This document shows positions 484 through 50,118 of a DNA stretch of 64,000 bases, piece by piece; within the stretch, counting starts at the first letter, position 1; every line of letters starts with the position of its first letter. Location of the stretch: the NCBI GenBank assembly GCA_045612365.1, contig JAZKYY010000010.1, positions 5,431-69,430 of the forward strand. Reading direction: 5' to 3'. Made by a program: the position numbers and the translations under genes. This DNA comes from Paludibacteraceae bacterium. GTDB taxonomy: Bacteria; Bacteroidota; Bacteroidia; Bacteroidales; Paludibacteraceae. Under the pieces are notes generated by a model. The model was not told the origin of the DNA and did no database searches. It saw only the letters and a program-made list of their open reading frames with translations.

Positions 484-981
484 ATGTCATTATTAATGCC
501 CGAAACAGGATTACTATTCTGGATGCTTTTGGTGTTCGGAATAGTCTTCCTAATTCTAGCTAAATTCGGCTGGCCTGTGATTACGGGTATGGTCGAAAAG
601 CGTACTTCGTTTATTAATGAATCTGTAAAATCTGCAGAAGAGGCAAATAAGCAACTTGAGAATATTAAACTTGAGACAGCTGCAATAATTGCTAAAGCTC
701 ACGAGGAAGAGGTGAGAATACTTAAAGATGCTGCAGAAACTCGTAAGCAAATTATTCAGGAGGCCAAGAATCTTGCTTCTGAGGAGGCTAAAAAGATTGT
801 TGAGGCAACGAAAGAGCAAATCGCAGCGGAAAAAGAACGTGCGTTGATGGATGTTAAGGATCAAATTGCTGAGATATCTATTCAAATCGCGGAGAAGGTA
901 GTTCGCAACGATTTGAAAAAAGATAATAATCAATCAGAAATAATAGAACGTCTTTTGGATGAAATAAAAACTTCTCATTGA
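484..981 (+). CDS. atpF: F0F1 ATP synthase subunit b
   Basis: One N-terminal TM helix followed by a long charged helix. Lies between the c and delta genes and overlaps the next gene by 4 nt. Confidence 0.85.
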   Translation: MSLLMPETGLLFWMLLVFGIVFLILAKFGWPVITGMVEKRTSFINESVKSAEEANKQLENIKLETAAIIAKAHEEEVRILKDAAETRKQIIQEAKNLASEEAKKIVEATKEQIAAEKERALMDVKDQIAEISIQIAEKVVRNDLKKDNNQSEIIERLLDEIKTSH

Positions 982-1520
982 TGAATGCAGGATTAATTTC
1001 AAAACGATATGCAAAGGCGTTGTATGTTTTTTCGGAACAAAACAATGCTTCGGAGGATGTCTATCAGGCAATGGAACGTTTGATAGAGAGTTATTTGTTG
1101 TATGCTGATTTTGCCCCAGTTTTGAACAACCCAACGCTTTCAAAAATGCAAAAGAAAGAGTTGATTCAAATTGCTGCAAAGGCGCAAGATAATATTGTTT
1201 TTGAAAAAATACTTGATTTAATCTTGCAAAATAATAGAGAGGATTCATTGCAACGAATAGCATTGGTCTTTTGTGATTTGTATAGAAAGGAAAAAGGAAT
1301 TTATTATGGTAAACTGACAACGGCAGTGTCGGTTGATGAAAAAACAATAAGTCTTATTCAACAATTATTGAATAAAGAGAATAAGAATAAAATTGAGTTG
1401 GACAAGAGAATTGATGAAGAAATTCTTGGAGGTTTTATCTTGGATATTGATGGAGTGCGACTTGATGCGTCAATCAAAAACCAATTTGTTCAGCTTAAAA
1501 AGAATTTGAAAAAGAACTAA
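978..1520 (+). CDS. atpH: F0F1 ATP synthase subunit delta (OSCP)
   Basis: 180 aa, with a C-terminal 'ILGGFILDIDGVRLDASIKNQ' delta-type motif. Operon position fits. Confidence 0.8.
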   Translation: MMNAGLISKRYAKALYVFSEQNNASEDVYQAMERLIESYLLYADFAPVLNNPTLSKMQKKELIQIAAKAQDNIVFEKILDLILQNNREDSLQRIALVFCDLYRKEKGIYYGKLTTAVSVDEKTISLIQQLLNKENKNKIELDKRIDEEILGGFILDIDGVRLDASIKNQFVQLKKNLKKN

Positions 1521-1547
1521 AATAGCAAATAGATATAATTTTAGAGT

Positions 1548-3137
1548 ATGTCAGAAAATGTAAAAGTCAGCGAAGTATCTGATATTTTGCGTCAACAGTT
1601 GGAGGGGATAAACCTAAATTTTCAGTTTGAGGAGGTAGGAACTGTATTGCAAGTTAGTGATGGTGTAGCTCGTATTTATGGGTTGAAGAATGCCGAAGCT
1701 AACGAGTTGTTGGCGTTTGAAAATGGGATGAACGCCATTGTGATGAACCTCGACGAAGATAATGTTGGTGCTGTTCTTTTAGGAAGCAGTGAAAAAATAA
1801 AAGAAGGTTTTACTGTTAAAAGAACTCATCGAATAGCATCTATTCAGGTGGGAGAGAATATGCTGGGAAGAGTTATTGACCCTATTGGAAATCCTCTTGA
1901 TGGAAAAGGTCCTATCTCGGGTGAGTTGATAGAAATGCCATTGGAGCGTAAGGCACCTGGTGTAATTTTCCGTCAACCAGTGAAAGAACCTCTTCAAACA
2001 GGTTTGAAGTCTGTAGATGCTCTTATTCCTATTGGTCGTGGTCAGCGTGAGTTGATTATTGGTGATAGAGAAACAGGAAAAACAAGTATTGCAATCGATA
2101 CAATTATAAATCAACGTTCTAACTTTGAAGCTGGCAATCCTGTTTACTGTATCTATGTAGCTATTGGGCAAAAAGGTTCTACTATTGCATCTTTGGTAAA
2201 TACGTTAGAGGAAAAAGGTGCGATGGATTATACCATAATTGTTTCGGCTACTGCCTCTGATTCTGCTGCAATGCAATATTTTGCGCCATTTGCAGGGGCA
2301 GCGATTGGAGAGTATTTCCGCGATACTGGTCGTCATGCGTTGGTTGTATACGATGACCTTTCTAAGCAAGCCGTTGCCTATCGTGAAGTTTCTCTTATTT
2401 TACGTCGCCCATCAGGTCGTGAAGCTTATCCTGGAGATATTTTCTATTTGCATTCTCGTTTGTTGGAGCGTGCAGCAAAAATTAATGAGCAACAAGAAGT
2501 TGCTGAGAAAATGAATGATTTGCCAGAATCTCTTGTAGGAAAGGTAAAAGGAGGTGGTTCATTGACCGCGCTTCCTATTATTGAAACACAAGCAGGAGAC
2601 GTGTCTGCATATATTCCTACGAATGTGATTTCTATTACAGATGGACAGATTTTCTTGGATACTAATTTGTTCAATCAAGGTAATAGACCTGCAATTAACG
2701 TGGGAATTTCTGTTTCTCGTGTAGGAGGAAATGCTCAGGTTAAAGCGATGAAAAAAGTTGCAGGGACACTGAAACTTGATCAAGCTCAATATCGTGAGTT
2801 GGAAGCTTTCTCTAAATTTGGAGGAGATATGGATGCGGTTACTGCAATGACCATAGACAAAGGACAAAAAAACACTAAGTTGCTTGTTCAACCTGTTAAT
2901 TCTCCGATGTCGGTTGAAAAACAGATTGCAATTCTTTATTGCGGAACAAATGGACTTTTGGCAGATGTAGAGTTAGATAAAGTTCCTGAGTTTGAAAAAC
3001 TGTTCTTGGAAACACTTGAGATGCGCTATCAAAAAGAGGTTTTTGATGTGTTAAAACAAGGTGTTATTGACGACAAAGTTACTGATATCTTGAAATCTGT
3101 AGCCGAACAAGTTCAAACTATGCTCAAAAATAATTAG
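1548..3137 (+). CDS. atpA: F0F1 ATP synthase subunit alpha
   Basis: Walker A 'GDRETGKTS', plus 'ITDGQIFL' and '[14 protein letters not shown]' alpha-subunit signatures. Confidence 0.97.
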
Positions 3138-3145
3138 AAGAAAAA

Positions 3146-4006
3146 ATGGCGTCACTCAAGGAGATAAAAACACGTATTTCGTCGGTAGATTCAACCAAAA
3201 AGATTACTTCGGCAATGAAGATGGTTGCATCGGCAAAGTTGCGTAAGGCTCAAAAAAATATTGAAACTTTTCTGCCTTACGAACTGAAACTTAACGAAAT
3301 GTTAAATTGTTTTTTGTCTGCAGAAGAGAATGTGAAATCAGTTTATACGGAACAAAGAGAACTGAATAGAATTGCGATTGTTGCAATTTCTTCAAATTCT
3401 AGTTTGTGTGGAGCTTTTAATTCTATAGTTATAAAAAAAGCTACTCAACTTATAGAGCAATATTCTCAACAATTGGGTCGAGAAAATGTTGAGGTGTTTT
3501 CTGTTGGAAAGAAAATTACAGATGCTGTAAAAAAGTTGGGATTTGTTCCTACGGAAAATTACGATTATTTGGTTGATAAACCCACTTATGAAGATGCTGT
3601 TACCTTTGCGGAAAGGTTGGTGACACTTTTTGCAGAAAATAAAGTAGATCAGAGTGTTTTTATTAACCAGAACTTTAAGTCTTCTGCTGTTCAGCAACTT
3701 ATTGCGGAAAAATATTTGCCGCTTTCACTATCTTTTTCTGCAGAAAAAAAAGAATCCATTGAATATATTTTGGAACCAAATAGGGAACATATTCTTGGGT
3801 TGTTGTTGCCGAAAGTTTTAAGATTGAAGGTTTATACGATGTTGCTTGACTCAATAGCTTCCGAACAAGCAGCTCGTACTTTGGCAATGCAGATCGCTAC
3901 AGATAATGCTGAAAAACTTTTAGAGGAATTAACAATACAGTACAATAAAGGCCGTCAGCAAGCCATTACAAATGAATTGCTTGATATAATGGGAGGTCAG
4001 CAGTAA
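3146..4006 (+). CDS. atpG: F0F1 ATP synthase subunit gamma
   Basis: N-terminal 'ASLKEIKTRISSVDSTKKITSAMKMVASAKLRKAQ' and C-terminal 'ITNELLDIMGG' gamma signatures. Confidence 0.93.
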   Translation: MASLKEIKTRISSVDSTKKITSAMKMVASAKLRKAQKNIETFLPYELKLNEMLNCFLSAEENVKSVYTEQRELNRIAIVAISSNSSLCGAFNSIVIKKATQLIEQYSQQLGRENVEVFSVGKKITDAVKKLGFVPTENYDYLVDKPTYEDAVTFAERLVTLFAENKVDQSVFINQNFKSSAVQQLIAEKYLPLSLSFSAEKKESIEYILEPNREHILGLLLPKVLRLKVYTMLLDSIASEQAARTLAMQIATDNAEKLLEELTIQYNKGRQQAITNELLDIMGGQQ

Positions 4007-40699: not shown

Positions 40700-40724
40700 A
40701 ATTTTTCTAGAAAAAGAACAGTTA

Positions 40725-40759
40725 AAAACCAACTCAAAATTTTGGGTCGGTTTTTTTTA
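40725..40759 (+). terminator. Probable rho-independent terminator of secG
   Basis: Imperfect stem ACCAACTC/GGGTCGGT followed by T8. Confidence 0.5.
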
Positions 40760-41028: not shown

Positions 41029-42294
41029 ATGGTTCTTATTTGGATAAAACGGATATTAGGTATAGTAACAACACCATCAAATGAAAATGACGGTGATAAA
41101 ATTGCATTGCTAAAATCGTTAGGCAAAGAACACTCCTTACAAGAATTAGACATTCGAAAGAGAATCACCCGGGAAGAAAAAGAAAAGATAAAATTATCTC
41201 CGATAAGCTGGTATAAGATTTTAATTCATAAACATATCGAAAGAGTTCCGAATAATATTTTTCAGGCATATAAACTTAATAAAGTTTTGACTCTGAAAGA
41301 ATTGAAGGAAGAACGATTAAAGAAAGAAGCTCATGAATTGAAAGTTCTAGAAGATAGTGTAAATGCCTTACTTCTAGATATAGATTCCTTAATAAAAAAT
41401 CGAAAAGCAGAAGATGCAAAACGTAAATTAAATACTGTTTTAGAAAAAATTGTCAAAGTAAAAGATTCTTCCATTCGATATAGACTTAATCAACTTCAAA
41501 TTTCTTTAGATAAACTTCTAACAGAACTTAAAGAAGAGGAACTTGCAAGACTAGCAGAAGAAAGACGACGCAGAGAAGAAGAAGCCAAAAGGCAAAAGGA
41601 AGCAGAAGAAAGAGCAAAGAAAGAGAGAGAAAGGAAAGAGCGAGAAGAAAGGGAAAGGAAAGAAGCACAAGCAAAACGACTTGCCGATGAAGCAAGACGA
41701 AAGGAAGATGCAGAAAGGCAAGAACGCCAGCGGCTGGAGGCGCTTTCTTCTGAGTTAAAGGATGACTGGCAGGCAATAATTGATGTTTTGAATGAGAATG
41801 GTATAAGATATTTGTATCATTTTACTGACAGAAGCAATATTTCACTAATCAAAAGATATGGTGGGCTCTTATCTTGGGCTTATTGTGAGAGGCATGGAAT
41901 AAGAATACCAAAACCCGGAGGTGGTCAACTAAGTCGTCAATTAGATGTAAGCAGAAATCTACAAGACTATGTAAGAATCAGTTTCACGAGGGAACACCCA
42001 ATGAAATATAAAGCGAAAAATGATGGTAGAATAACCGACCCTGTAAATCTTATAATTGACATAAGAGCTGCTTGTATTGCAAGTGCATTGTATTCCAATA
42101 AGAATGCAACAATAATGCGTGAACCTGTAAACATTGGTAGTACAATTGACGATTTGAAACAAATACATTTTCGTTCGGTTAAAGCATCCAAACATTTTGA
42201 CTTGGACGATGAAGAGCGTTCCTACTTCCAAGCAGAGATTATGATTAAAACATTCCTTTCCAAAAAGTATATAATAAATCTAGATAAATTTTGA
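41029..42294 (+). CDS. Coiled-coil / ER-K helix protein with a C-terminal DarT-like (DUF4433) ADP-ribosyltransferase domain
   Basis: 421 aa. Residues ~167-238 are almost pure E/R/K/A ('EERRRREEEAKRQKEAEERAKKERERKEREERERKEAQAKR...'). Residues ~246-421 carry 'LYHFTDRSNISLIKRYGGLLS', 'LQDYVRISF' and 'YFQAEIMIK' in the order of the DarT H-Y-E motifs. Confidence 0.6.
   Translation: MVLIWIKRILGIVTTPSNENDGDKIALLKSLGKEHSLQELDIRKRITREEKEKIKLSPISWYKILIHKHIERVPNNIFQAYKLNKVLTLKELKEERLKKEAHELKVLEDSVNALLLDIDSLIKNRKAEDAKRKLNTVLEKIVKVKDSSIRYRLNQLQISLDKLLTELKEEELARLAEERRRREEEAKRQKEAEERAKKERERKEREERERKEAQAKRLADEARRKEDAERQERQRLEALSSELKDDWQAIIDVLNENGIRYLYHFTDRSNISLIKRYGGLLSWAYCERHGIRIPKPGGGQLSRQLDVSRNLQDYVRISFTREHPMKYKAKNDGRITDPVNLIIDIRAACIASALYSNKNATIMREPVNIGSTIDDLKQIHFRSVKASKHFDLDDEERSYFQAEIMIKTFLSKKYIINLDKF
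41527..41742 (+). repeat. Polypurine low-complexity tract encoding the ER/K segment
   Basis: Roughly 200 nt made almost entirely of A/G on the plus strand (gaagaaagacgacgcagagaagaagaagcc...). Confidence 0.85.
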
Positions 42295-42297
42295 ATT

Positions 42298-42996
42298 ATG
42301 ATATACGTCGTAAATAAAAAGCGAAAGCTGGAGAAAGTCAAAGAGGATTTCCCTAATGCAACGATATTGGATATTACCTCAACCTCTAATATGAGATATG
42401 CGCAGATATTGAGTCCTTTCTATCCGCACATGAACATTCCCATACCATTTACGGAAGGACTGACGGCTACATGTGTAGAAGCCGTATGGCAAGGACTGAA
42501 GGTCTTTGATGGTGCGGATGTAGATTTTGCCACATTCAGAAATGACACGATGAGAGACTTGAAACGAACAGTTCGCAAGTATGGTATGCCAAAGGGACAT
42601 CGAAAAGGAGCATACGGGAAAGAATTGTTAGGCTACTTTGAGGCTCGAATGCTCATTTATTTACCAACGTACAAGTGGGTACTCGATAATGCCCCAGAAG
42701 TGCATCATGTAGTAGAACGCATAAAAGAGCAAAGCAAGATACATGATATAATTCTATTAGATTATAACACCAACATCGATTTCCGAGATGCTTCAAAGCC
42801 GTTATCACATGCAGGGCTTGTAAAACTCTATATCGAAGGGAATTATCCTAAGGGCTTAGAGGGTTATCAGCCAATGACGAAAGATGAATTGGAGCAAAAG
42901 AAATTACGAGACAAGGAGCTGAGAAAAGAAATAAAAAAACAGGCAGAAATGAAAAAAATATTAGGAGATATAACTCTATTTGATAATAACGAATAA
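42298..42996 (+). CDS. NADAR (YbiA/DUF1768)-like protein, candidate ADP-ribose-removing antidote (tentative)
   Basis: 232 aa. 'LSPFYP...GLTATCVEAVWQGLKVF' resembles the NADAR 'FSNF...SxEHYFQAxKF' core, and 'LLDYNTN...SHAGLVKLYIEG' resembles its C-terminal block. Starts 3 nt after the DarT-like gene. Confidence 0.4.
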   Translation: MIYVVNKKRKLEKVKEDFPNATILDITSTSNMRYAQILSPFYPHMNIPIPFTEGLTATCVEAVWQGLKVFDGADVDFATFRNDTMRDLKRTVRKYGMPKGHRKGAYGKELLGYFEARMLIYLPTYKWVLDNAPEVHHVVERIKEQSKIHDIILLDYNTNIDFRDASKPLSHAGLVKLYIEGNYPKGLEGYQPMTKDELEQKKLRDKELRKEIKKQAEMKKILGDITLFDNNE

Positions 42997-43008
42997 AATT
43001 ACAACGAT

Positions 43009-44538
43009 ATGGAAAATATAAACGAATACATTGGTTTGATACTGGCAGTTGCCATTGTGCTTATTGTGATAACCCTTCAAGTTATTAGTTTTATCGAAAC
43101 ACAAAATAAAATTAAAGAACTTTGTGGCTTGTTTAATGATGTAGAAAAACTTATTTTGAAAGAAACTTCTATTACAACAAGCAATCTCAGTACAAAAAGG
43201 TCTTTACAAACATTCTTGAAGAATATTCCTAACCGTCATGTAAAAGACGAAGCTGAAGAGGAAGATGAGCATACCGATTATACAGATCTTTCACTCGTAG
43301 TCTTCTCTAATGGAAGAAATGCCAACAAACGTATGCGAATGATAGTAGATAGAACTAATGAATATCTCTGTAAGAATACGGGCACAAGTGCAGATTTAGG
43401 GATACTTGAAGATATTTGTGACAATCAGAAGAATGCTCTTGAAGATGAAATACACAACAGCTTAAATGTTCCCCTTTATCTTGGATTGTCTGGAACATTT
43501 ATCGGCATCATTACAGGTCTATGGGGTATTGATTTTCAAAAAATATTTGGAGTTGGAGGAGAACTTACAGGGCTTCAACATCTTCTATATGGTGTAGTAG
43601 TAGCTATGATTGCCAGTCTTCTGGGATTAGGGCTTACCGTATTTAACAGTGCCATTTCGTACAAAGCTGCAATTTCGAAAGCCAACGAGGGGAAAGGAGA
43701 TTATATGGATTTTCTCCGTCGTGAATTGATGCCACTTTTGTCAAATAGTATGGCATCAAGCTTGAACTCTTTGCGAGGTGTACTTGGCCACTTTGTTGAC
43801 AAGTTTGGACGAAATCTTGATGCTTATGCCGATTCTGCCGAATTACTTAATGACAATCTAGAGAAACAACATTTAGTATTAGAAGAAATTAACAAATTGA
43901 GTTTAACAAAAACTGCTAATAAAATAGCAGAAACTTTCGTTCAATTAAAAGATTCCTCCGACTCACTCTCAATATTTCAAACATATCAACAACAACTAAA
44001 CACTACAATTGCTAATGTATCGGGAGTAGTTACTCAAATACAAACATTACTAACTAAATTTGAAGAGTTTTCTGTTGGCTTGTCACTTGTTGTCAGTAAT
44101 CAAAACAAAACAAATGAATTGCAAAGAGAATTCCAAGAAGCCATAACAACACATTTCCCAACTGGTTCAGAAGCGAGGGATGCTTGGCGCAAGGAGTTTG
44201 ATTTGTTTATATCGGAAGGGAAACAAGTTTCAGAGAGCCTGTCTACACAACTAACAGCATCTACAGAGCATATTCAGAACTTCGTCGCAAATAACAAAGA
44301 ATTCTTTGACACGTTTGATAAGATAAAAGAAGTACTTGCTACGATGGTACAATATACGCAAGTACAAGCCGATTGCTACAAGGATTTGAAGGGGGAAGTT
44401 TTGAATTTGCGTAAAGATTATAAGGATGCACAGCAAGAGTCCATCGAGTTACATAAGGCAACACTGCAAGCTGTAGATGCAATGACAAAAGCCATTAAAG
44501 ATATAAACAAAAATAATTATGGCAAAAAAGAAATATAG
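43009..44538 (+). CDS. ZorA-like MotA/ExbB/TolQ-family channel protein with a long C-terminal helical tail
   Basis: 509 aa. TM1 spans aa 8-28. Channel helices are 'PLYLGLSGTFIGIITGLWG' and 'LLYGVVVAMIASLLGLGLTVFNSAI', followed by ~285 aa of heptad-like helical sequence. Confidence 0.7.
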   Translation: MENINEYIGLILAVAIVLIVITLQVISFIETQNKIKELCGLFNDVEKLILKETSITTSNLSTKRSLQTFLKNIPNRHVKDEAEEEDEHTDYTDLSLVVFSNGRNANKRMRMIVDRTNEYLCKNTGTSADLGILEDICDNQKNALEDEIHNSLNVPLYLGLSGTFIGIITGLWGIDFQKIFGVGGELTGLQHLLYGVVVAMIASLLGLGLTVFNSAISYKAAISKANEGKGDYMDFLRRELMPLLSNSMASSLNSLRGVLGHFVDKFGRNLDAYADSAELLNDNLEKQHLVLEEINKLSLTKTANKIAETFVQLKDSSDSLSIFQTYQQQLNTTIANVSGVVTQIQTLLTKFEEFSVGLSLVVSNQNKTNELQREFQEAITTHFPTGSEARDAWRKEFDLFISEGKQVSESLSTQLTASTEHIQNFVANNKEFFDTFDKIKEVLATMVQYTQVQADCYKDLKGEVLNLRKDYKDAQQESIELHKATLQAVDAMTKAIKDINKNNYGKKEI

Positions 44539-45199
44539 TGACTCATTCTGGCTCAGTTATTCGGATTTGATGACGAGTCTCTTTTTCATTATGCTAGTTT
44601 TGTTCATAATATGTGTGGCCAAAATGGGCAAAGCTTTAAATGATGCTAATGCTTCGAATGAACAATTAAAGCGTATTCTACAACTCGACACCATGTTTGT
44701 AGAACTAAGCAAAACGTCTGCGTTACAATATGTCGAGGAACAGAAGATGTTTGTTGCAAAGGATTTTATTGGTATTGAAATTTTTAATCCGTTTACAGGT
44801 TCAAATTGGGAAGAAGCAACTACTATTAAGCAAGAATATCTTCAAACAGTAGATTTTGTTGGACAATCTCTTTTAAAAGTCGTAAAAACACTATATGAGA
44901 AAAATCCAGATTTGAATTTCCAATTAGTTATTGAAGGTTATGCTGCTATTCCTTGGCAGCTACTTCAAAATCACAGCTATAATGCAGATAATAAAAGAAT
45001 GTATGAACTAAGCTACCATCGAGCATTATCACTTTATCGCAGATGGCTTTCAAAAGGCATAAACCTTCGAACTTATAATACAGAAGTTATTATTGCTGGA
45101 AGTGGATTTAATGGAAACAATAGAGATAATAAAGTGGAAGAGAATAACAAAAGGTTTGTGATTCAGATTATTCCAAAGATTTCAATGCCCTCCAAATAA
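44519..45199 (+). CDS. ZorB-like MotB/OmpA-family protein
   Basis: 226 aa. 'FWLSYSDLMTSLFFIMLVLFII' is a MotB-type TM helix with the conserved Asp. The OmpA-like C-terminus reads 'LVIEGYAA...ELSYHRALSLYRRWL...IIAGSG'. 20-nt overlap with the ZorA-like gene. Confidence 0.7.
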   Translation: MAKKKYSDSFWLSYSDLMTSLFFIMLVLFIICVAKMGKALNDANASNEQLKRILQLDTMFVELSKTSALQYVEEQKMFVAKDFIGIEIFNPFTGSNWEEATTIKQEYLQTVDFVGQSLLKVVKTLYEKNPDLNFQLVIEGYAAIPWQLLQNHSYNADNKRMYELSYHRALSLYRRWLSKGINLRTYNTEVIIAGSGFNGNNRDNKVEENNKRFVIQIIPKISMPSK

Positions 45200-45207
45200 T
45201 AATTTCC

Positions 45208-47259
45208 CTACCACTTAGGCGAAATTCCTACGAAGAATTCGAAATTGATGCCGGGCATAGGGCGTGAGAGTACGGAGAGGTACTCCTCATCAAAGAGATT
45301 GTTTATCGTGCCTTTTAGCGACAAATCGGCCCAGCGGAAGAGGAAAAGCTTTTCTAGTGAGATGTTGCTCATAAAGTAGGGCGGAAGCTTGCCAGTGAGC
45401 GAGAGGTCGTTGCTCGACATGGTGAAGCGTTCGCTATAGTAGCACCACTTGTAGGTAAACGTCCAGCGTCGCCACGAGAGTCGCCCGTTGATGGTGGACG
45501 AGAGCAGTGGAATGTAGGGCAGTTGCTTACCTACCGATTGGTCGGCCGGCGAGCGTGGCTCGCCTTGGTTGATGGAGGGCGTCCACGAGAAAGTGCCGTT
45601 TAGCCCAAGTCGCCAATCTTTGGGGAAAATCAAGTTCAAGTCGGCTTGCAATTCCACACCATAAGCATGCACATCTTTGATATTGTCGGGTGAGAAAAAT
45701 CCTTTGGTCGTTGGCAACCAAATAATCCAATCGTTGATGTAAGAATCGAACCACGTGGCAGAGCCCGAAAGCGAATAAACATCTTTTTTCCCTGCAGCGA
45801 ACGAAAGTCCGGCATCGTAGGTCCAACCGCTTTCTTGCTTGAGTTCGGGGTTTCCCCCGGGCAAAAAGTAAAGGTCGTTGAGCGTGGGGAAACGGAAGTT
45901 GCGTGAAACCGACGCTTTTGCCATCAGATTGCCTTTTTTGGACAATACGCCGTCGATAAAAAATGCAGGAATCACCGGAGTCCAGTTCTTCCCATAAAGT
46001 TCTTCGCGCACCACCACCGACATTCCGAGTCGGTCGATTGGTTGCCATTTGACCGATGCACTACCCGAAAGTTCTATGCGTGCTTTTCGGTAACCCACAA
46101 TGCCTTTGTCGCCACTTTGTAGAACGACGTTTTTGTCGCGACTCTCCACAAAGTGCTGATGTGCCGAAAGGTTGGCCATGAAAAGCCATTTTTTATGCAA
46201 ATGATATTCTCCCTCAACTTTTCCGTAAATTGTGTGAATTTTACTGCGTGAGCGGGTCATGTGTGCCATTACACCGTTGCCAAGGTCGCGTTTGTAGTCG
46301 TAGGCCATCCAAGTGTAGATGTAACCTGCGTTGGCAGAAACTTTCCACGCTTCGGCCAAATGGTCGTAGGAGAAAACACTGCGGAACGTATGTTCACGTT
46401 GTCGGTTATCGAAGTCGGTATCGTCGCCGTGGTCAACGGTTAGCATTGGTAGTTCGCGGTTGGAGTAGATGTACCAAGCGTTCAACCCGAAGCGGTCGCC
46501 ACGTTTGTTGTTGTAATAAACCTCTTGCAAAAGGTGTAGATCTTTGAACTCACCACTTTTGTTTCGCTCTATGGGGTAGTATTGCTCCACGATGTTCATA
46601 TCGTCGTCGTAAACGTTAATCTTTTTATCGTGATTGCGGAATTTGTAATTGTTTTTCGAAGTGGAAAAAACAACTCGTGTAGATGTTTGCCAATGTTCAT
46701 TGCCGTATGAGAGTCGGAGAAAATCGTCGAACGTGTAAAACGAGCCAACGCCTTGTACAAACTGCAGTCCAAAACCTTCTTGCTCGGCAGGTTTTGTAGA
46801 AAGTTTTATGGCTCCTCCGAGTCCGCCTCCCGTTTCGTTTACCGACGACGTTCCGTGAAGTAGCGATGCTTTATCGATAAAATACGACGGAATCATAGAA
46901 AAGTCCGTCATTCCAAGCATTGGGTTGTTTATTCGCATTCCGTTCCATGTTACTTGCGTATGCGATGGCGATGTGCCACGAAACGAAACAGTAGAGAGCG
47001 TTGCTCGTCCGTAACTTTTTACAAAAATAGGCGTGTTGAAAGTTAAAACATCGGCCATGGAGAGTGCAATGTTTTCTTTCAGTACTACGGAGTCGAGTTT
47101 GGTTTGCTGGATGCCAATTTCCTTCAAAGGTCTTTTACCATAAACCGTAACTTCAGGAATTAGGATTTTTTTATGCACATCGTATGTAGTACTATTTTCT
47201 TCGGCATTTGCAGAAAATAGCATCAGGAGTAAAATGTATGTCAAATAGCGTTTTTTCAT
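45208..47259 (-). CDS. TonB-dependent receptor, BtuB-like (corrinoid uptake by context)
   Basis: Signal peptide 'MKKRYLTYILLLMLFSANA', a plug domain, a 22-strand-type barrel, and the terminal '...NFEFFVGISPKW' aromatic end. It is the last gene of the B12-riboswitch operon. ATGA overlap with the upstream gene. Confidence 0.85.
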   Translation of the reverse strand: MKKRYLTYILLLMLFSANAEENSTTYDVHKKILIPEVTVYGKRPLKEIGIQQTKLDSVVLKENIALSMADVLTFNTPIFVKSYGRATLSTVSFRGTSPSHTQVTWNGMRINNPMLGMTDFSMIPSYFIDKASLLHGTSSVNETGGGLGGAIKLSTKPAEQEGFGLQFVQGVGSFYTFDDFLRLSYGNEHWQTSTRVVFSTSKNNYKFRNHDKKINVYDDDMNIVEQYYPIERNKSGEFKDLHLLQEVYYNNKRGDRFGLNAWYIYSNRELPMLTVDHGDDTDFDNRQREHTFRSVFSYDHLAEAWKVSANAGYIYTWMAYDYKRDLGNGVMAHMTRSRSKIHTIYGKVEGEYHLHKKWLFMANLSAHQHFVESRDKNVVLQSGDKGIVGYRKARIELSGSASVKWQPIDRLGMSVVVREELYGKNWTPVIPAFFIDGVLSKKGNLMAKASVSRNFRFPTLNDLYFLPGGNPELKQESGWTYDAGLSFAAGKKDVYSLSGSATWFDSYINDWIIWLPTTKGFFSPDNIKDVHAYGVELQADLNLIFPKDWRLGLNGTFSWTPSINQGEPRSPADQSVGKQLPYIPLLSSTINGRLSWRRWTFTYKWCYYSERFTMSSNDLSLTGKLPPYFMSNISLEKLFLFRWADLSLKGTINNLFDEEYLSVLSRPMPGINFEFFVGISPKW

Positions 47260-48323
47260 TTCCAACAAAATGCTCCGGGGATAATTCCTACATAAAATTC
47301 GTCGATAAGTTCGCCTTCTTTTGAATAGCGATAAATTTTCCCCTGCTGACAATAATCAATGGCGTCGGCTACGTACACGTCGCCTGTGCGTGGACAAATG
47401 GTAAGTCCGTAGTAAATGGTTTCTTGATAGGGCAGAAATGGTTTTATTGGCAGATAATCTGCTGTAACGTCCATCTCCCAAATATCGTTGTTTATCCAGT
47501 AGATTTTGTCTTTTGTGCCGTTGAGTTGTACTTCCGATGGCCAGTCGCCAAAAGTGAAACGAAATTGTTGCTCAATTTGGAAAGTTTCGGCATCAATACG
47601 GTAAAGCGATGGTGCTTCGTGTCCGTAAGGTGAACCTTCGTAGCCGCCGTCGGTAACTGTCCAAAGTTTGTTGTTGCAGTCCATAACGAGCGATGTGGGT
47701 TGAATGCCAACGGTAAGCTCGTCCACAACTTTGTCTGTTTCGGTATCAATTTTCAGAATACGATTTTGGTACGACCAACAATTTACGAATACGTATTTCC
47801 CGTATTGTACCATTTGTTCGGTAGAACCGCTTTCGGTGGTCATGTTGGGGCAATCGATGTAGCCGATAATTTCATATCGTTTTGGGTTGACAATAAAAAT
47901 GCGATTGTCCCAAATCTGCGTAATGTAGGCTTTTTCGTCGGAGATGAAATGCATGTAGCGTGGCGAGGTGAGGTTAGTTATTCGCCCAACTTCTTTGAAC
48001 GTGTTGATGTCGATGGCAAAAACTACGTGCGAATTGTTGACAACGACCCATCCTATCCCATCTCTAATAATCATCGATTGCGCTACGTCGCCAAGTTTCA
48101 TGGCATTGGCACGATAGAAAATTTCGTTTTCGATGGTTTTTGTTTCGGGGTCGTAGTAAGAAAGTGAGGCGTTGCCATACTGAAAATTGCCTTCGTTGGT
48201 AATGAAAAGCCCTTCGCCGCTTGCCGCAAAATCCTCTTCCAAACCGTACTCCCACTCCATGCAACTTGCAAGAAGAACAGAAGTGAAGAATACGGAAAGT
48301 AATATTTTTATTTTATATGGCAT
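47256..48323 (-). CDS. YncE-like beta-propeller surface lipoprotein (BtuG-like candidate)
   Basis: Lipobox 'LLASC', repeated propeller-blade-like segments, and a position immediately upstream of and translationally coupled to the receptor. Confidence 0.65.
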   Translation of the reverse strand: MPYKIKILLSVFFTSVLLASCMEWEYGLEEDFAASGEGLFITNEGNFQYGNASLSYYDPETKTIENEIFYRANAMKLGDVAQSMIIRDGIGWVVVNNSHVVFAIDINTFKEVGRITNLTSPRYMHFISDEKAYITQIWDNRIFIVNPKRYEIIGYIDCPNMTTESGSTEQMVQYGKYVFVNCWSYQNRILKIDTETDKVVDELTVGIQPTSLVMDCNNKLWTVTDGGYEGSPYGHEAPSLYRIDAETFQIEQQFRFTFGDWPSEVQLNGTKDKIYWINNDIWEMDVTADYLPIKPFLPYQETIYYGLTICPRTGDVYVADAIDYCQQGKIYRYSKEGELIDEFYVGIIPGAFCWK

Positions 48324-48362
48324 TTACTTGTGTTTTTTTGGAAAAGGTATTTCGTTTTTTTT

Positions 48363-50099
48363 TTATTCTTTTGTCATACTACAATCAAAAAATCCAAGCA
48401 CCTCGGTAGAAACTTCGCCAAGCCAACCACTTTTGGTATTGACACCAGTTTGAATTTTGATGAAATCGATAAATTTCAAATCAACACTTTTGCCTTGTGC
48501 ATCGATTGCATTAGAAATTTTGAAATAATTTGCATTTGCATCGGCGTTTGCATTTGCATCATTTGTCAAACGATCGATGGAACTAAAATTGTCTGCATAA
48601 CCCCAATCGTATTCGGCATTGACCCAATATGAGCCGTTGCCCGACTTGTCGTAGTTGCGTGCTTCAAGGCAAGTGCCACGAAGTGTGTAAGAATTCTCTT
48701 CAATCCACATAGGGTAGTAGAAATCTTGATTGTGATACATTTTAAGGTAATCTATTTCACCGCTATTGCCTTGGTTGTCGGTCCATTGTACCGACATTTG
48801 TTTTGCACTTGGTCTATAGTAAGTTACGGCGTAATTCTGAATAGTTGATTCCTTGCCTGTTTCCGAACCACGAAGTTCGTACCAGTTGTCGTTAGGAAGC
48901 CCGTCGCCATTTTCGTCTTGCATCACCCACACAATACCCGGTTCCGATGATCCTGAGAATGAGTTGCCAAGCACACCAAAGTCATATCCACCAGTATTGT
49001 CGATGCTGTGATCGAATCCTACTACGATGTAACCACCAAATCCACCTAGTGAAACCCAATTGTTAGACGAAAGTCGAGCTTCTGCATACGCAATGGCTGC
49101 TTGTAGCGTGCTTTGATTGCCGTCAAAACCTCCTGTCTTAAGTTCGTTGATGAATTGTCCCGGAGCAGGAATGTATTCGTAAACTTTATTCCAATTGGCT
49201 GATGAGTTTTCTGTTTTTGCACGATAGTTTAAGTCCTCTGGAGAAATTACGTTCACCGTAAGCGTTTGCGTGAGTGATTCTTCTTTTTCGCCACGCACAA
49301 TATTGGCTGTAACGGTTACTTCGTGTTTCCCAACTTGTGTTAGGTTGCACATCCAAGTTTGTTTCGTTCCTTCTTGAATAATGTTTTCTCCAACCTTGAA
49401 ACAGAATGTAGCATTCTCTAAATTCTGCGTTTCGGTAGGTCCAACTTCAATTACGCGACCAGCTACCAATTGATAGTCGGTTTGCAAAAATTGCCATGAG
49501 ATAGGTGCAAATTCCACAACCTCTATTTTGATTTCAACTTTGTCTGCTCCGTCTTCATTTTTTGCTTCGAAAACCAATGTATAAATGCCTAGTTCTTTGG
49601 CTAAAAATGTATATGACAGCTCACTGCTTACACTTTGGTCGTTTAGTTTCCAATCGTAGGTTGTCGGGATAGAAGTTTTTCTGACCAAAGCATTCAGGGT
49701 TATTTTGCCATCTAAGGCTAAAATGAATCCGTTTTCTGCTCCTGCAACCGATACCGTAGGGATTTCGAGTTCTACCACGTCGATGCGAATTTCACGCTTG
49801 TCTTCTCCATTTTCGGTTTCAACTTTTATGGTAATGTAAAATTGCCCTAACTCTTTGCTACAAAACTCGAGCGTAGGGTCGATGCCAATAATAGAATCGT
49901 TGATGCTCCATGTGTAGATAGCATTTTGTGCGTATTCGTAATTAGGAACAATGGTTATTGTTCTCCCAATTTTAGTAGAATAAACTCCCGATTTGTTCTC
50001 GAAAGTTATTTTTGGAGGATTGTCAACGGTAATTTCCTCATCGATATTACACGATGAAAAGGCAAGAATAATGGCACTGAATAGAAGTAATTTTTTCAT
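48363..50099 (-). CDS. Surface lipoprotein with three PKD/Ig-like repeats and a C-terminal globular domain
   Basis: Lipobox 'AFSSC' and three ~90-aa repeats ending '...EIRIDVVE', '...EIKIEVVE' and '...TLTVNV'. The C-terminal domain contains 'WVSLGGFGGYIVVGFDHSI' and 'GIVWVMQDENGDGLPND'. Confidence 0.6.
   Translation of the reverse strand: MKKLLLFSAIILAFSSCNIDEEITVDNPPKITFENKSGVYSTKIGRTITIVPNYEYAQNAIYTWSINDSIIGIDPTLEFCSKELGQFYITIKVETENGEDKREIRIDVVELEIPTVSVAGAENGFILALDGKITLNALVRKTSIPTTYDWKLNDQSVSSELSYTFLAKELGIYTLVFEAKNEDGADKVEIKIEVVEFAPISWQFLQTDYQLVAGRVIEVGPTETQNLENATFCFKVGENIIQEGTKQTWMCNLTQVGKHEVTVTANIVRGEKEESLTQTLTVNVISPEDLNYRAKTENSSANWNKVYEYIPAPGQFINELKTGGFDGNQSTLQAAIAYAEARLSSNNWVSLGGFGGYIVVGFDHSIDNTGGYDFGVLGNSFSGSSEPGIVWVMQDENGDGLPNDNWYELRGSETGKESTIQNYAVTYYRPSAKQMSVQWTDNQGNSGEIDYLKMYHNQDFYYPMWIEENSYTLRGTCLEARNYDKSGNGSYWVNAEYDWGYADNFSSIDRLTNDANANADANANYFKISNAIDAQGKSVDLKFIDFIKIQTGVNTKSGWLGEVSTEVLGFFDCSMTKE
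48529..48564. repeat. 18-nt tandem duplication (14-nt identical core 'tttgcatttgcatc' occurring twice)
   Basis: Read directly from the sequence. It encodes 'DANANADANAN' in the 578-aa lipoprotein. Confidence 0.9.
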
Positions 50100-50118
50100 T
50101 TTGCAAAGTTAATATTTA

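Follow-up and report, generated by a model that had tools for sequence, protein, structure and literature searches.

What is a gene for a DNA ADP-ribosyltransferase doing directly in front of the genes for a membrane motor, and do the two work together? This question is raised by a four-gene operon in a stretch of 64,000 nucleotides (nt) from a Paludibacteraceae bacterium (assembly GCA_045612365.1, contig JAZKYY010000010.1, positions 5,431 to 69,430 of the forward strand), which is referred to as the window throughout. A preliminary description of this DNA had proposed that the operon couples a DarT-like and a NADAR-like protein to a ZorAB-like pair, and had offered either a new Zorya-like subtype or two stacked two-gene systems as its explanation. 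The described Zorya types pair ZorAB with ZorCD, ZorE or ZorFG and end in helicase/nuclease or nickase effectors; DarT pairs with a DarG macrodomain or with NADAR. The open reading frame (ORF) listing confirmed the packing of the four genes on one strand, with a gap of 3 nt between ORF1 and ORF2, a gap of 12 nt between ORF2 and ORF3, and an overlap of 20 nt between ORF3 and ORF4, and all of the motifs quoted previously were present in the ORFs to which they had been assigned. From the analysis described below, we consider it probable that the four genes constitute one integrated Zorya-like anti-phage system with a writer/eraser effector.

The last two genes of the operon have the makings of the motor. 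ORF3 displays what is expected of a ZorA subunit, a MotA/ExbB-type core followed by a long (~285-residue) predicted helical tail. Its motifs PLYLGLSGTFIGI (residues 155 to 167) and AMIASLLGLGLTV (residues 199 to 211) were confirmed, and its hydropathy profile contains hydrophobic stretches at residues 1 to 33 and 186 to 217 as well as an amphipathic channel helix at residues 155 to 177. The ORF3 family comprises 985 representative clusters at E<=1e-3. A 52-sequence profile of this family, compared with the PDB, matched type II ZorA (8vvi_F, 4.2e-7), EcZorA (8qyk_A, 5.1e-6) and type I ZorA (8vvn_C, 3.2e-3), and it aligned with the tails of 8vvi_F and 8vvn_C and also with chemoreceptor helical bundles. 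PADLOC ZorA2 models recognized 16 of the 52 members, the best at 1e-13. In the AlphaFold2 (AF2) model of ORF3, the predicted local distance difference test score (pLDDT) of the membrane core was 70 to 82, and the top 50 PDB matches obtained with Foldseek were all TolQ, ExbB, ZorA or MotA chains. DSSP assigned continuous helices to residues 187 to 508 of the model at low confidence.

ORF4 shows the corresponding features of a ZorB subunit. The sequence FWLSYSDLMTS at residues 10 to 20 provides the conserved Asp of the plug/transmembrane segment (Asp16), the membrane-spanning part extends over about residues 17 to 42, and a peptidoglycan-binding domain forms the C terminus. PADLOC ZorB1 matched ORF4 at 3.4e-9. 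At E<0.01, the ORF4 family profile retrieved ZorB chains only from the PDB (8vvn_B over its full length at 3.7e-13, 8qyd_F at 1.8e-7 and 8vvi_A at 2e-4), and the invariant residues of the family include D16, R168, N210 and R212. The ZorA- and ZorB-like character that had been suggested for the two proteins was therefore upheld. Individually, they lie far under the thresholds for Zorya types I to III (PADLOC values of 1.8e-5 to 3.4e-9), and on sequence grounds they are classed as ZorAB-like, not as members of the type I to III families.

The first gene encodes the putative writer. ORF1 was matched over residues 263 to 416 by Pfam DarT (PF14487; E=1e-21, 78 bits, cutoff 22.5) and by the PADLOC DarT model at 1.1e-9, and it contains the motifs YHFTD (residues 263 to 267), VRISF (residues 315 to 319) and QAEIM (residues 401 to 405). 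A profile was built from 20 DarT domains of the family and searched against the PDB. Its best relative was Escherichia coli C7 DarT1 (8baq, 1.9e-11), followed by a DarT-macro protein (7omu, 8.8e-9), Thermus DarT2 (7omv, 2e-5) and a Mycobacterium DarT (7yk3, 5.5e-3). The assignment of ORF1 as DarT-like thus stands, with E. coli C7 DarT1 in place of the Thermus enzyme that the preliminary description had used for comparison. Single-sequence searches of the PDB with ORF1, ORF2 or ORF3 gave nothing useful.

The essential residues of E. coli C7 DarT1 are R52, D54, S63, M71, the guanine-coordinating N104 and the catalytic E152 (PMC11543638). Their equivalents in ORF1 are R303/D306 (SRQLD), S318 (VRISF), M325 (HPM), N359 (NAT) and E403 (QAE), which together with H264 make up the key residues of the domain. 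They are invariant or near-invariant within the family, with the spacing from R to D being one residue off. When the profile alignment is read against the same study, M325 corresponds to the oxocarbenium-stabilising Met and E403 to the ADP-ribosyltransferase glutamate. S318 occupies the site of Tyr in the H-Y-E motif of DarT2, and N359 takes the site of the guanine-coordinating N104 in DarT1 and of the thymine-coordinating His in DarT2. Because the DarT1 residues are kept, with Ser at the Tyr site and Asn at the His site, ORF1 can be assigned to the DarT1-type enzymes and is predicted to modify guanine. With 421 residues, including an N-terminal extension of 245 residues, ORF1 is much larger than a stand-alone toxin of ~200 residues. 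No Pfam domain matched residues 1 to 245.

The partner of this enzyme is a DUF6939 protein. ORF2 matched Pfam DUF6939 (PF22075) at 7.5e-69 (231 bits, cutoff 27) over the full model length, which places it in a family of at least 7,966 clusters at 90% identity. It had been described as NADAR-like, and this likeness held up in part: the DarT1-associated NADAR family PF22397 matched ORF2 with an E value of 5.5e-5 but, at 23.2 bits, stayed under its cutoff of 27, and it matched 22 of 28 diverse ORF2 homologues (best 7.5e-7), the family itself being DUF6939 and the NADAR fold putative. E. coli C7 NADAR uses the catalytic residues E88 and K95 plus an acidic residue of the last strand (D171). In ORF2, the sequence VEAVWQGLKVF (residues 60 to 70) includes E61 and K68, two invariant residues that stand seven positions apart, just as E88 and K95 do. 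ORF2 is therefore a probable NADAR-like eraser and antitoxin.

The C terminus of bacterial DUF6939 proteins, whether motor-linked or not, usually consists of a Lys-rich linker and then QLSLF, QLNLF or QxxLF. This type of ending we take to be the consensus beta sliding-clamp binding motif. Its strict form, Qxx[LIM]F, occurred in 30 of 63 distinct motor-linked tails, in 14 of 29 unlinked tails and in none of 5 viral tails. In most homologues, DUF6939 probably rides the beta sliding clamp by means of this C-terminal motif. The C terminus of ORF2 itself (window 42973 to 42996) has the Lys-rich linker and a degenerate motif, ITLFDNNE, in which TLF only is retained.

To follow the operon across species, genomes were scanned with an alignment of 12 ZorA-like sequences, using one genome per species. 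This yielded 75 loci, mostly in Bacteroidota (Bacteroidales, Flavobacteriales, Chitinophagales, Saprospiraceae and Sphingobacteriales), to which the ZorA-like family is largely restricted. DarT and DUF6939 genes were found directly upstream of the ZorAB-like pair in 37 of the 54 loci having at least 2.3 kb of upstream sequence, so that the survey of co-occurrence suggested by the preliminary description turned out in favor of a four-gene cassette. The gene order is kept down to ~35% identity of the ZorA-like protein and, among close homologues, is the same in at least four unrelated flanks. Sialic-acid genes, a P-type ATPase and an AAA_15 ATPase were seen next to the cassette, and other copies lay inside integrase/relaxase/primase mobile elements. 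Integrative or mobilisable elements often carry it as cargo at their edge, and among gut bacteria of humans and animals it is common in Bacteroides, Parabacteroides, Prevotella and Alistipes. Every ZorAB-like pair examined was preceded by a co-directional, tightly spaced gene, and no orphan motor was seen among them. In a large share of the public metagenome contigs with the cassette, the contig measures only ~4.4 to 5.5 kb and consists of the four genes and short flanks. Metagenome assemblies appear to break at the cassette borders because the cassette occupies many contexts. Since contigs of this size hold the four genes and little else, the four genes therefore appear to travel as a unit.

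Loci in which other genes precede a ZorAB-like pair of the same family were also recovered. In L047 and L051, the upstream genes encode a DarT and then a Macro-domain protein. L046 (positions 847 to 3238) has a 547-residue protein and then a 2OG-Fe(II)/AlkB-type oxygenase, and L028 has a 780-residue protein with weak PD-(D/E)XK/Cas4 similarity. In a further sub-clade (L037 to L044), a PP2C phosphatase lies upstream of the pair, sometimes with DarT; a kinase-vWA-PP2C trio was confirmed in L041 only. Additional genes in some loci of the PP2C sub-clade encode a TerY-C zinc protein or a DarT that has no eraser next to it; downstream of the ZorB-like gene, the sub-clade has a small gene of the DUF6150 or vWA kind. 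Because the variant loci carry different upstream genes, the motor family appears to be modular in its effectors, like the Zorya subtypes.

The N-terminal extension of ORF1 proved to be a property of motor-linked effectors. On 74 distinct motor-linked DarTs, it had a median length of 236 residues and a median E/K/R/D/Q fraction of 0.505. Most of 19 unlinked DarTs either had no extension or had globular domains of another composition at the N or C terminus. Stand-alone DarTs (L118 to L175) came without an extension, with a non-charged N-terminal domain of 400 to 600 residues, or with a C-terminal domain of ~303 residues. The extension, for which we propose the role of an adaptor, is also common to unrelated catalytic domains. 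The adaptor of L047, a Macro-type locus, matched those of DUF6939-type DarTs at 9e-100 (L048), 9e-77 (L050) and 4e-73 (L060), whereas its catalytic domain matched their catalytic domains at only ~1e-7. The adaptor of L051 matched residues 3 to 282 of the L046 protein at 3e-26, and an adaptor hidden Markov model (HMM) matched the non-DarT effectors upstream of the ZorAB-like pairs in L046 (4e-21) and L028 (4.6e-15). Such non-DarT partners were seen only with adaptors of other clades and with the HMM; phmmer with fragments of the window's own ORF1 adaptor returned none. In its C-terminal half, the L046 protein has the sequence IFDWGCGQGLG, similar on visual inspection to motif I of S-adenosylmethionine binding, and no match to the C-terminal domain was obtained in Pfam, NCBIfam or the PDB. 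Judged by this motif, L046 could possibly pair a methyltransferase-like writer with an AlkB-like eraser, which would echo the writer/eraser logic.

The sequence of the adaptor also follows that of the motor. For 59 distinct cassettes, the pairwise identity of the adaptor and that of the ZorA-like tail were correlated with a Spearman rho of 0.84 (0.83 among close pairs), compared with 0.53 (0.28 among close pairs) for the adaptor and its own adjacent catalytic domain; as the pairs are non-independent, these values are supportive and do not amount to a formal test. The adaptor is thus motor-specific, common to unrelated catalytic domains and co-varying with the tail, and because of this the joined form appears to be functionally integrated.

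A comparison of related cassettes revealed a mosaic structure. The closest relative, L001, is identical to the window by 93% in ORF3, 95% in ORF2 and 83% in the adaptor, and by 41% in the DarT domain. Over the remainder of the cassette and on into the genes downstream, its DNA is 92% identical. For the corresponding segment of the window (41771 to 42293), more distant cassettes (L011, L097 and L004) have a DarT domain that is 82 to 91% identical. The domain is diverged in the nearest cassette and close in distant ones, and we therefore conclude that the catalytic domain was exchanged by recombination. The periplasmic part of the ZorB-like protein was likewise exchanged, with a bimodal distribution of identities (39% versus 67 to 87%). 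ORF2 did not follow the swap of the DarT domain, which fits an eraser acting on the modification, not an antitoxin that binds the toxin.

Of ten viral contigs that the DUF6939 profile retrieved, nine carry a short, solo DUF6939 gene (178 to 196 residues) without DarT or motor. These nine contigs (L087 to L095, from IMG/VR) are 14.5 to 201 kb in length, seven of them exceeding 70 kb, and are of phage or giant-virus type. Weaker relatives of DUF6939 were detected in jumbo Erwinia phages and in a 462-kb phage (records MZ443771 and others, LR756500). A phage-borne anti-DarT NADAR, AdfN, has been reported (PMC11257639). By analogy with AdfN, the solo DUF6939 genes of phages are candidates for counter-defence.

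Taken as an integrated system, the operon could operate as follows. ORF3 and ORF4 would assemble into an ion-driven membrane complex of the ZorAB type, presumably with 5:2 stoichiometry by homology with ZorAB (PMC11946911, PMC11890865). ORF4 would anchor this motor to the peptidoglycan, while the long helical tail of ORF3 would extend into the cytoplasm, and the motor would sense the perturbation of the envelope during phage entry. The adaptor of ORF1 would bind the ORF3 tail, so that DarT could be held or controlled there and its activity released or concentrated near the entry site. The DarT1-type domain would ADP-ribosylate guanines, chiefly in incoming or replicating phage DNA, and thereby block replication. 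As an enzymatic antitoxin, ORF2 would strip ADP-ribose from host DNA, and a clamp-associated eraser would keep the chromosome clean. What the sequences themselves establish is the set of parts with their family assignments, the kept catalytic residues, the genetic coupling, and the motor-specific adaptor with its co-variation; defence, binding of the adaptor to the tail, activation by the motor, guanine specificity, eraser activity and clamp binding are inferred.

It should be noted that a number of observations weigh against this interpretation. All evidence for it is computational, as regards defence, enzyme activities and complex formation alike, and the co-variation of adaptor and tail is drawn from non-independent pairs. 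As a single sequence, ORF3 bears a weak likeness to ZorA (PADLOC ZorA1, 1.8e-5; Pfam MotA_ExbB, 0.29), and its AF2 model has an overall pLDDT of 52.8; NCBIfam ZorB1 gave ORF4 24 bits for a cutoff of 400. The AF2 model of ORF2, based on a shallow alignment of 16 close homologues, had a pLDDT of 39, too low for use, and in a further homologue search with a diverse profile no protein below 72% identity to ORF2 was recovered. No NADAR was matched when the DUF6939 profile was compared with the PDB, and hhalign of DUF6939 with E. coli YbiA was not significant. The clamp-binding-like motif of ORF2 in the window lacks its Gln. The operon is surrounded in the window by housekeeping-type genes and no recognisable defence island. 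Finally, a metagenome scan with the DUF6939 profile produced 80 loci, 55 of which had at least 2.4 kb of downstream sequence; the ZorAB-like pair was present in 26 of the 55, and in the other 29 DarT-DUF6939 pairs occurred, in either gene order, without ZorAB-like genes. As DarT-DUF6939 occurs alone, it would therefore be a self-sufficient module that has since been joined to the motor.

These solitary pairs, with their two gene orders and other accessory domains, are what one would expect if two independent two-gene systems had been stacked, a DarT-DUF6939 toxin-antitoxin or abortive-infection module next to an independent ZorAB-like module that either has its effector at another site or needs none. 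The quite different genes found upstream of other ZorAB-like pairs in this family agree with stacking as well, and defence genes commonly cluster. However, stacking does not readily account for an order and tight spacing that are kept phylum-wide across different flanks, for the lack of any same-family ZorAB-like pair seen without a co-directional upstream partner, or for the many ~4.4- to 5.5-kb metagenome contigs made up of the four genes and little else. It also leaves unexplained why a charged adaptor should be limited to motor-linked effectors, be common to unrelated catalytic domains and co-vary with the tail. Between the two explanations offered at the outset, comparative genomics (synteny, adaptor and co-variation) favors the integrated system, and we regard stacking as unlikely. 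The association with the edges of integrative and mobilisable elements would also suit a membrane-stress growth-control or addiction module of such elements, in which the motor reports the status of the envelope or the proton motive force and DarT reversibly stalls host replication, an action that has been proposed for DarTG, stabilising the element or inducing dormancy. The clamp-binding-like motif of the eraser points to the host replisome, and DarTG is described as controlling DNA replication and growth besides defence (PMC11543638). We nevertheless judge such a role improbable, given that the solo DUF6939 genes of phages are best explained as counter-defence, that swaps of catalytic domains between near-identical cassettes are typical of conflict systems, and that, in structural terms, ORF3 and ORF4 are related most closely to the defence motors ZorAB and less so to other 5:2 motors.

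A reading that we consider very improbable is that ORF3 and ORF4 have nothing to do with the DarT pair and form a Tol/Exb-type energiser for the TonB-dependent receptor cluster next to them. A TonB-dependent receptor gene does lie immediately downstream on the opposite strand, and TolQ and ExbB are among the top Foldseek matches. However, the ORF4 profile matches ZorB chains only, and the C terminus of ORF4 is OmpA-like and does not have the ExbD/TolR fold; the 285-residue helical tail of ORF3 is missing in ExbB/TolQ, and the ORF3 family profile matches ZorA chains. The energiser was rejected as an explanation since other genomes do not keep the receptor neighbourhood.

Compared with known systems, the integrated system would be Zorya-like at its sensor end and DarTG1-like at its effector end, and it is neither Zorya of types I to III nor plain DarTG. 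Three Zorya subtypes are known (Nature 2024 paper). With type I (ZorABCD) and type II (ZorA2-ZorB2-ZorE), the operon has in common a MotA/ExbB-like subunit with a long helical tail, a MotB-like subunit with a plug-transmembrane Asp and a peptidoglycan-binding domain, and the pairing of the motor with soluble, DNA-acting effectors that differ between variants. Unlike in Zorya, the effector genes are situated upstream of the motor instead of downstream, and where Zorya has a helicase/nuclease or a nickase, the operon has an ADP-ribosyltransferase that modifies bases and comes with its own eraser. ZorC/D, ZorE and ZorF/G are absent from the operon, in which DarT and DUF6939 are the only genes besides the motor, in line with the earlier statement that no helicase or nuclease of the ZorC/D/E kind is present; the motor sequences fall far under the Zorya family thresholds. 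To DarTG1 (DarT1-NADAR of E. coli C7, PMC11543638), the operon is linked by the key residues of the DarT1 type, among them the Asn that coordinates guanine and the catalytic Glu, by a downstream gene that resembles the DarT1-associated NADAR and has the same E-x6-K spacing, and by orphan copies of the eraser in phages (compare AdfN, PMC11257639). It differs from DarTG1 in the 245-residue helical extension of DarT, in being operonic with a ZorAB-like motor, and in a partner from the separate family DUF6939 that is below the NADAR-DarT1 cutoff and usually ends in a clamp-binding-like motif. Similarity to DarTG2 (DarT2-DarG macrodomain) is restricted to the sister variants L047 and L051, with DarT and Macro genes upstream of the same ZorAB-like family; the system in the window uses DUF6939, not a macrodomain, and its DarT has Asn, not the thymine-coordinating His.

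The operon appears to represent a kind of anti-phage defence that has not been described before. A full-text search of openly accessible literature found no DarT or DUF6939 linked to ZorAB, and the term DUF6939 did not occur in the literature searched. PADLOC-DB v2, NCBIfam and RefSeq annotation hold no model or name for the DarT-DUF6939-ZorAB architecture, in agreement with the preliminary description, to which no such system was known. In RefSeq, the cassette of Parabacteroides distasonis is annotated as one 'DUF4433 domain-containing protein' and then three 'hypothetical protein' entries.

The features of the operon and its upstream boundary are compiled in Table 1.

Table 1. Positions of the four genes, their assigned parts and the upstream palindrome (numbered from the first nucleotide of the window)
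Feature	Position	Strand	Length	Basis
Palindrome and T-run, 3' of the upstream secG-like ORF	40724-40755	+		Inverted repeat and sequence inspection
ORF1	41029-42294	+	421 aa	ORF listing
ORF1 aa 1-245, charged N-terminal extension, probably helical, proposed adaptor	41029-41763	+		Composition, HMM, co-variation
ORF1 aa 246-421, DarT1-type ADP-ribosyltransferase domain	41764-42294	+		Pfam, PADLOC, family profile
ORF2	42298-42996	+	232 aa	ORF listing
ORF2, DUF6939 protein, probable NADAR-like ADP-ribosyl-base glycohydrolase	42298-42996	+		Pfam, homologue searches
ORF3	43009-44538	+	509 aa	ORF listing
ORF3 aa 1-224, ZorA-like membrane core	43009-43680	+		PADLOC, family profile, Foldseek
ORF3 aa 225-509, long all-helical cytoplasmic tail, ZorA-tail-like	43681-44538	+		AF2/DSSP, profile
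ORF4	44519-45199	+	226 aa	ORF listing
ORF4, ZorB-like: plug/transmembrane segment and OmpA-like peptidoglycan-binding C-terminal domain	44519-45199	+		PADLOC, family profile

The palindrome with its T-run is likely a terminator that sets the upstream boundary of the operon, and the intergenic stretch before ORF1 measures 273 nt. Scans of the flanks for promoters and terminators remained at background level, and no insertion-site-like repeats were found flanking the cassette. Homology of the flank to L001 begins at 40704. Downstream, the G+C content rises abruptly from ~35% in the cassette to 41 to 47% in the neighboring cluster (45200 to 50100). By homology with L001, this divergent cluster encodes a TonB-dependent receptor, DUF5074, PKD_3 and DUF4465 proteins; the Plug and TonB_dep_Rec domains were found in the corresponding receptor of the 92%-identical L001 locus. 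The downstream cluster is common to the window and its Paludibacteraceae relative, and the upstream flank is not. Farther away, nearly all large ORFs in positions 1 to 35000 of the window are on the plus strand, with a strongly positive GC skew (0.15 to 0.3) that is unusual; the skew falls to ~0 near 35 kb, where gene orientation flips. No tRNA genes were found across the whole window.

Beyond this locus, we tentatively suggest that the operon may be a member of a broad, undescribed immune family of Bacteroidota, a possibility that we hold with less than even confidence. In this family, the tail of an envelope-sensing ZorAB-type motor would recruit, via a conserved helical adaptor, interchangeable writers (DarT1-like, DarT2-like, methyltransferase-like or nuclease), each with a cognate eraser (NADAR-like DUF6939, macrodomain or AlkB-like dioxygenase) tethered to the host clamp, so that only phage DNA would stay modified. 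If this is true, discrimination between self and non-self would be set by the location of the writer versus that of the eraser. Signalling from the Zorya tail to its effectors would become directly testable with a transferable, tail-associated adaptor and a simple enzymatic read-out, DNA ADP-ribosylation. DarT toxins would also be placed within a sensor-coupled architecture, beyond the classic two-gene toxin-antitoxin pairs. For DUF6939, a probable function can be offered, and the phage-borne members are predicted to act in counter-defence. As the cassette is common in gut genera and often located on mobile elements, these findings may have a bearing on phage-host dynamics in the gut and on phage therapy.

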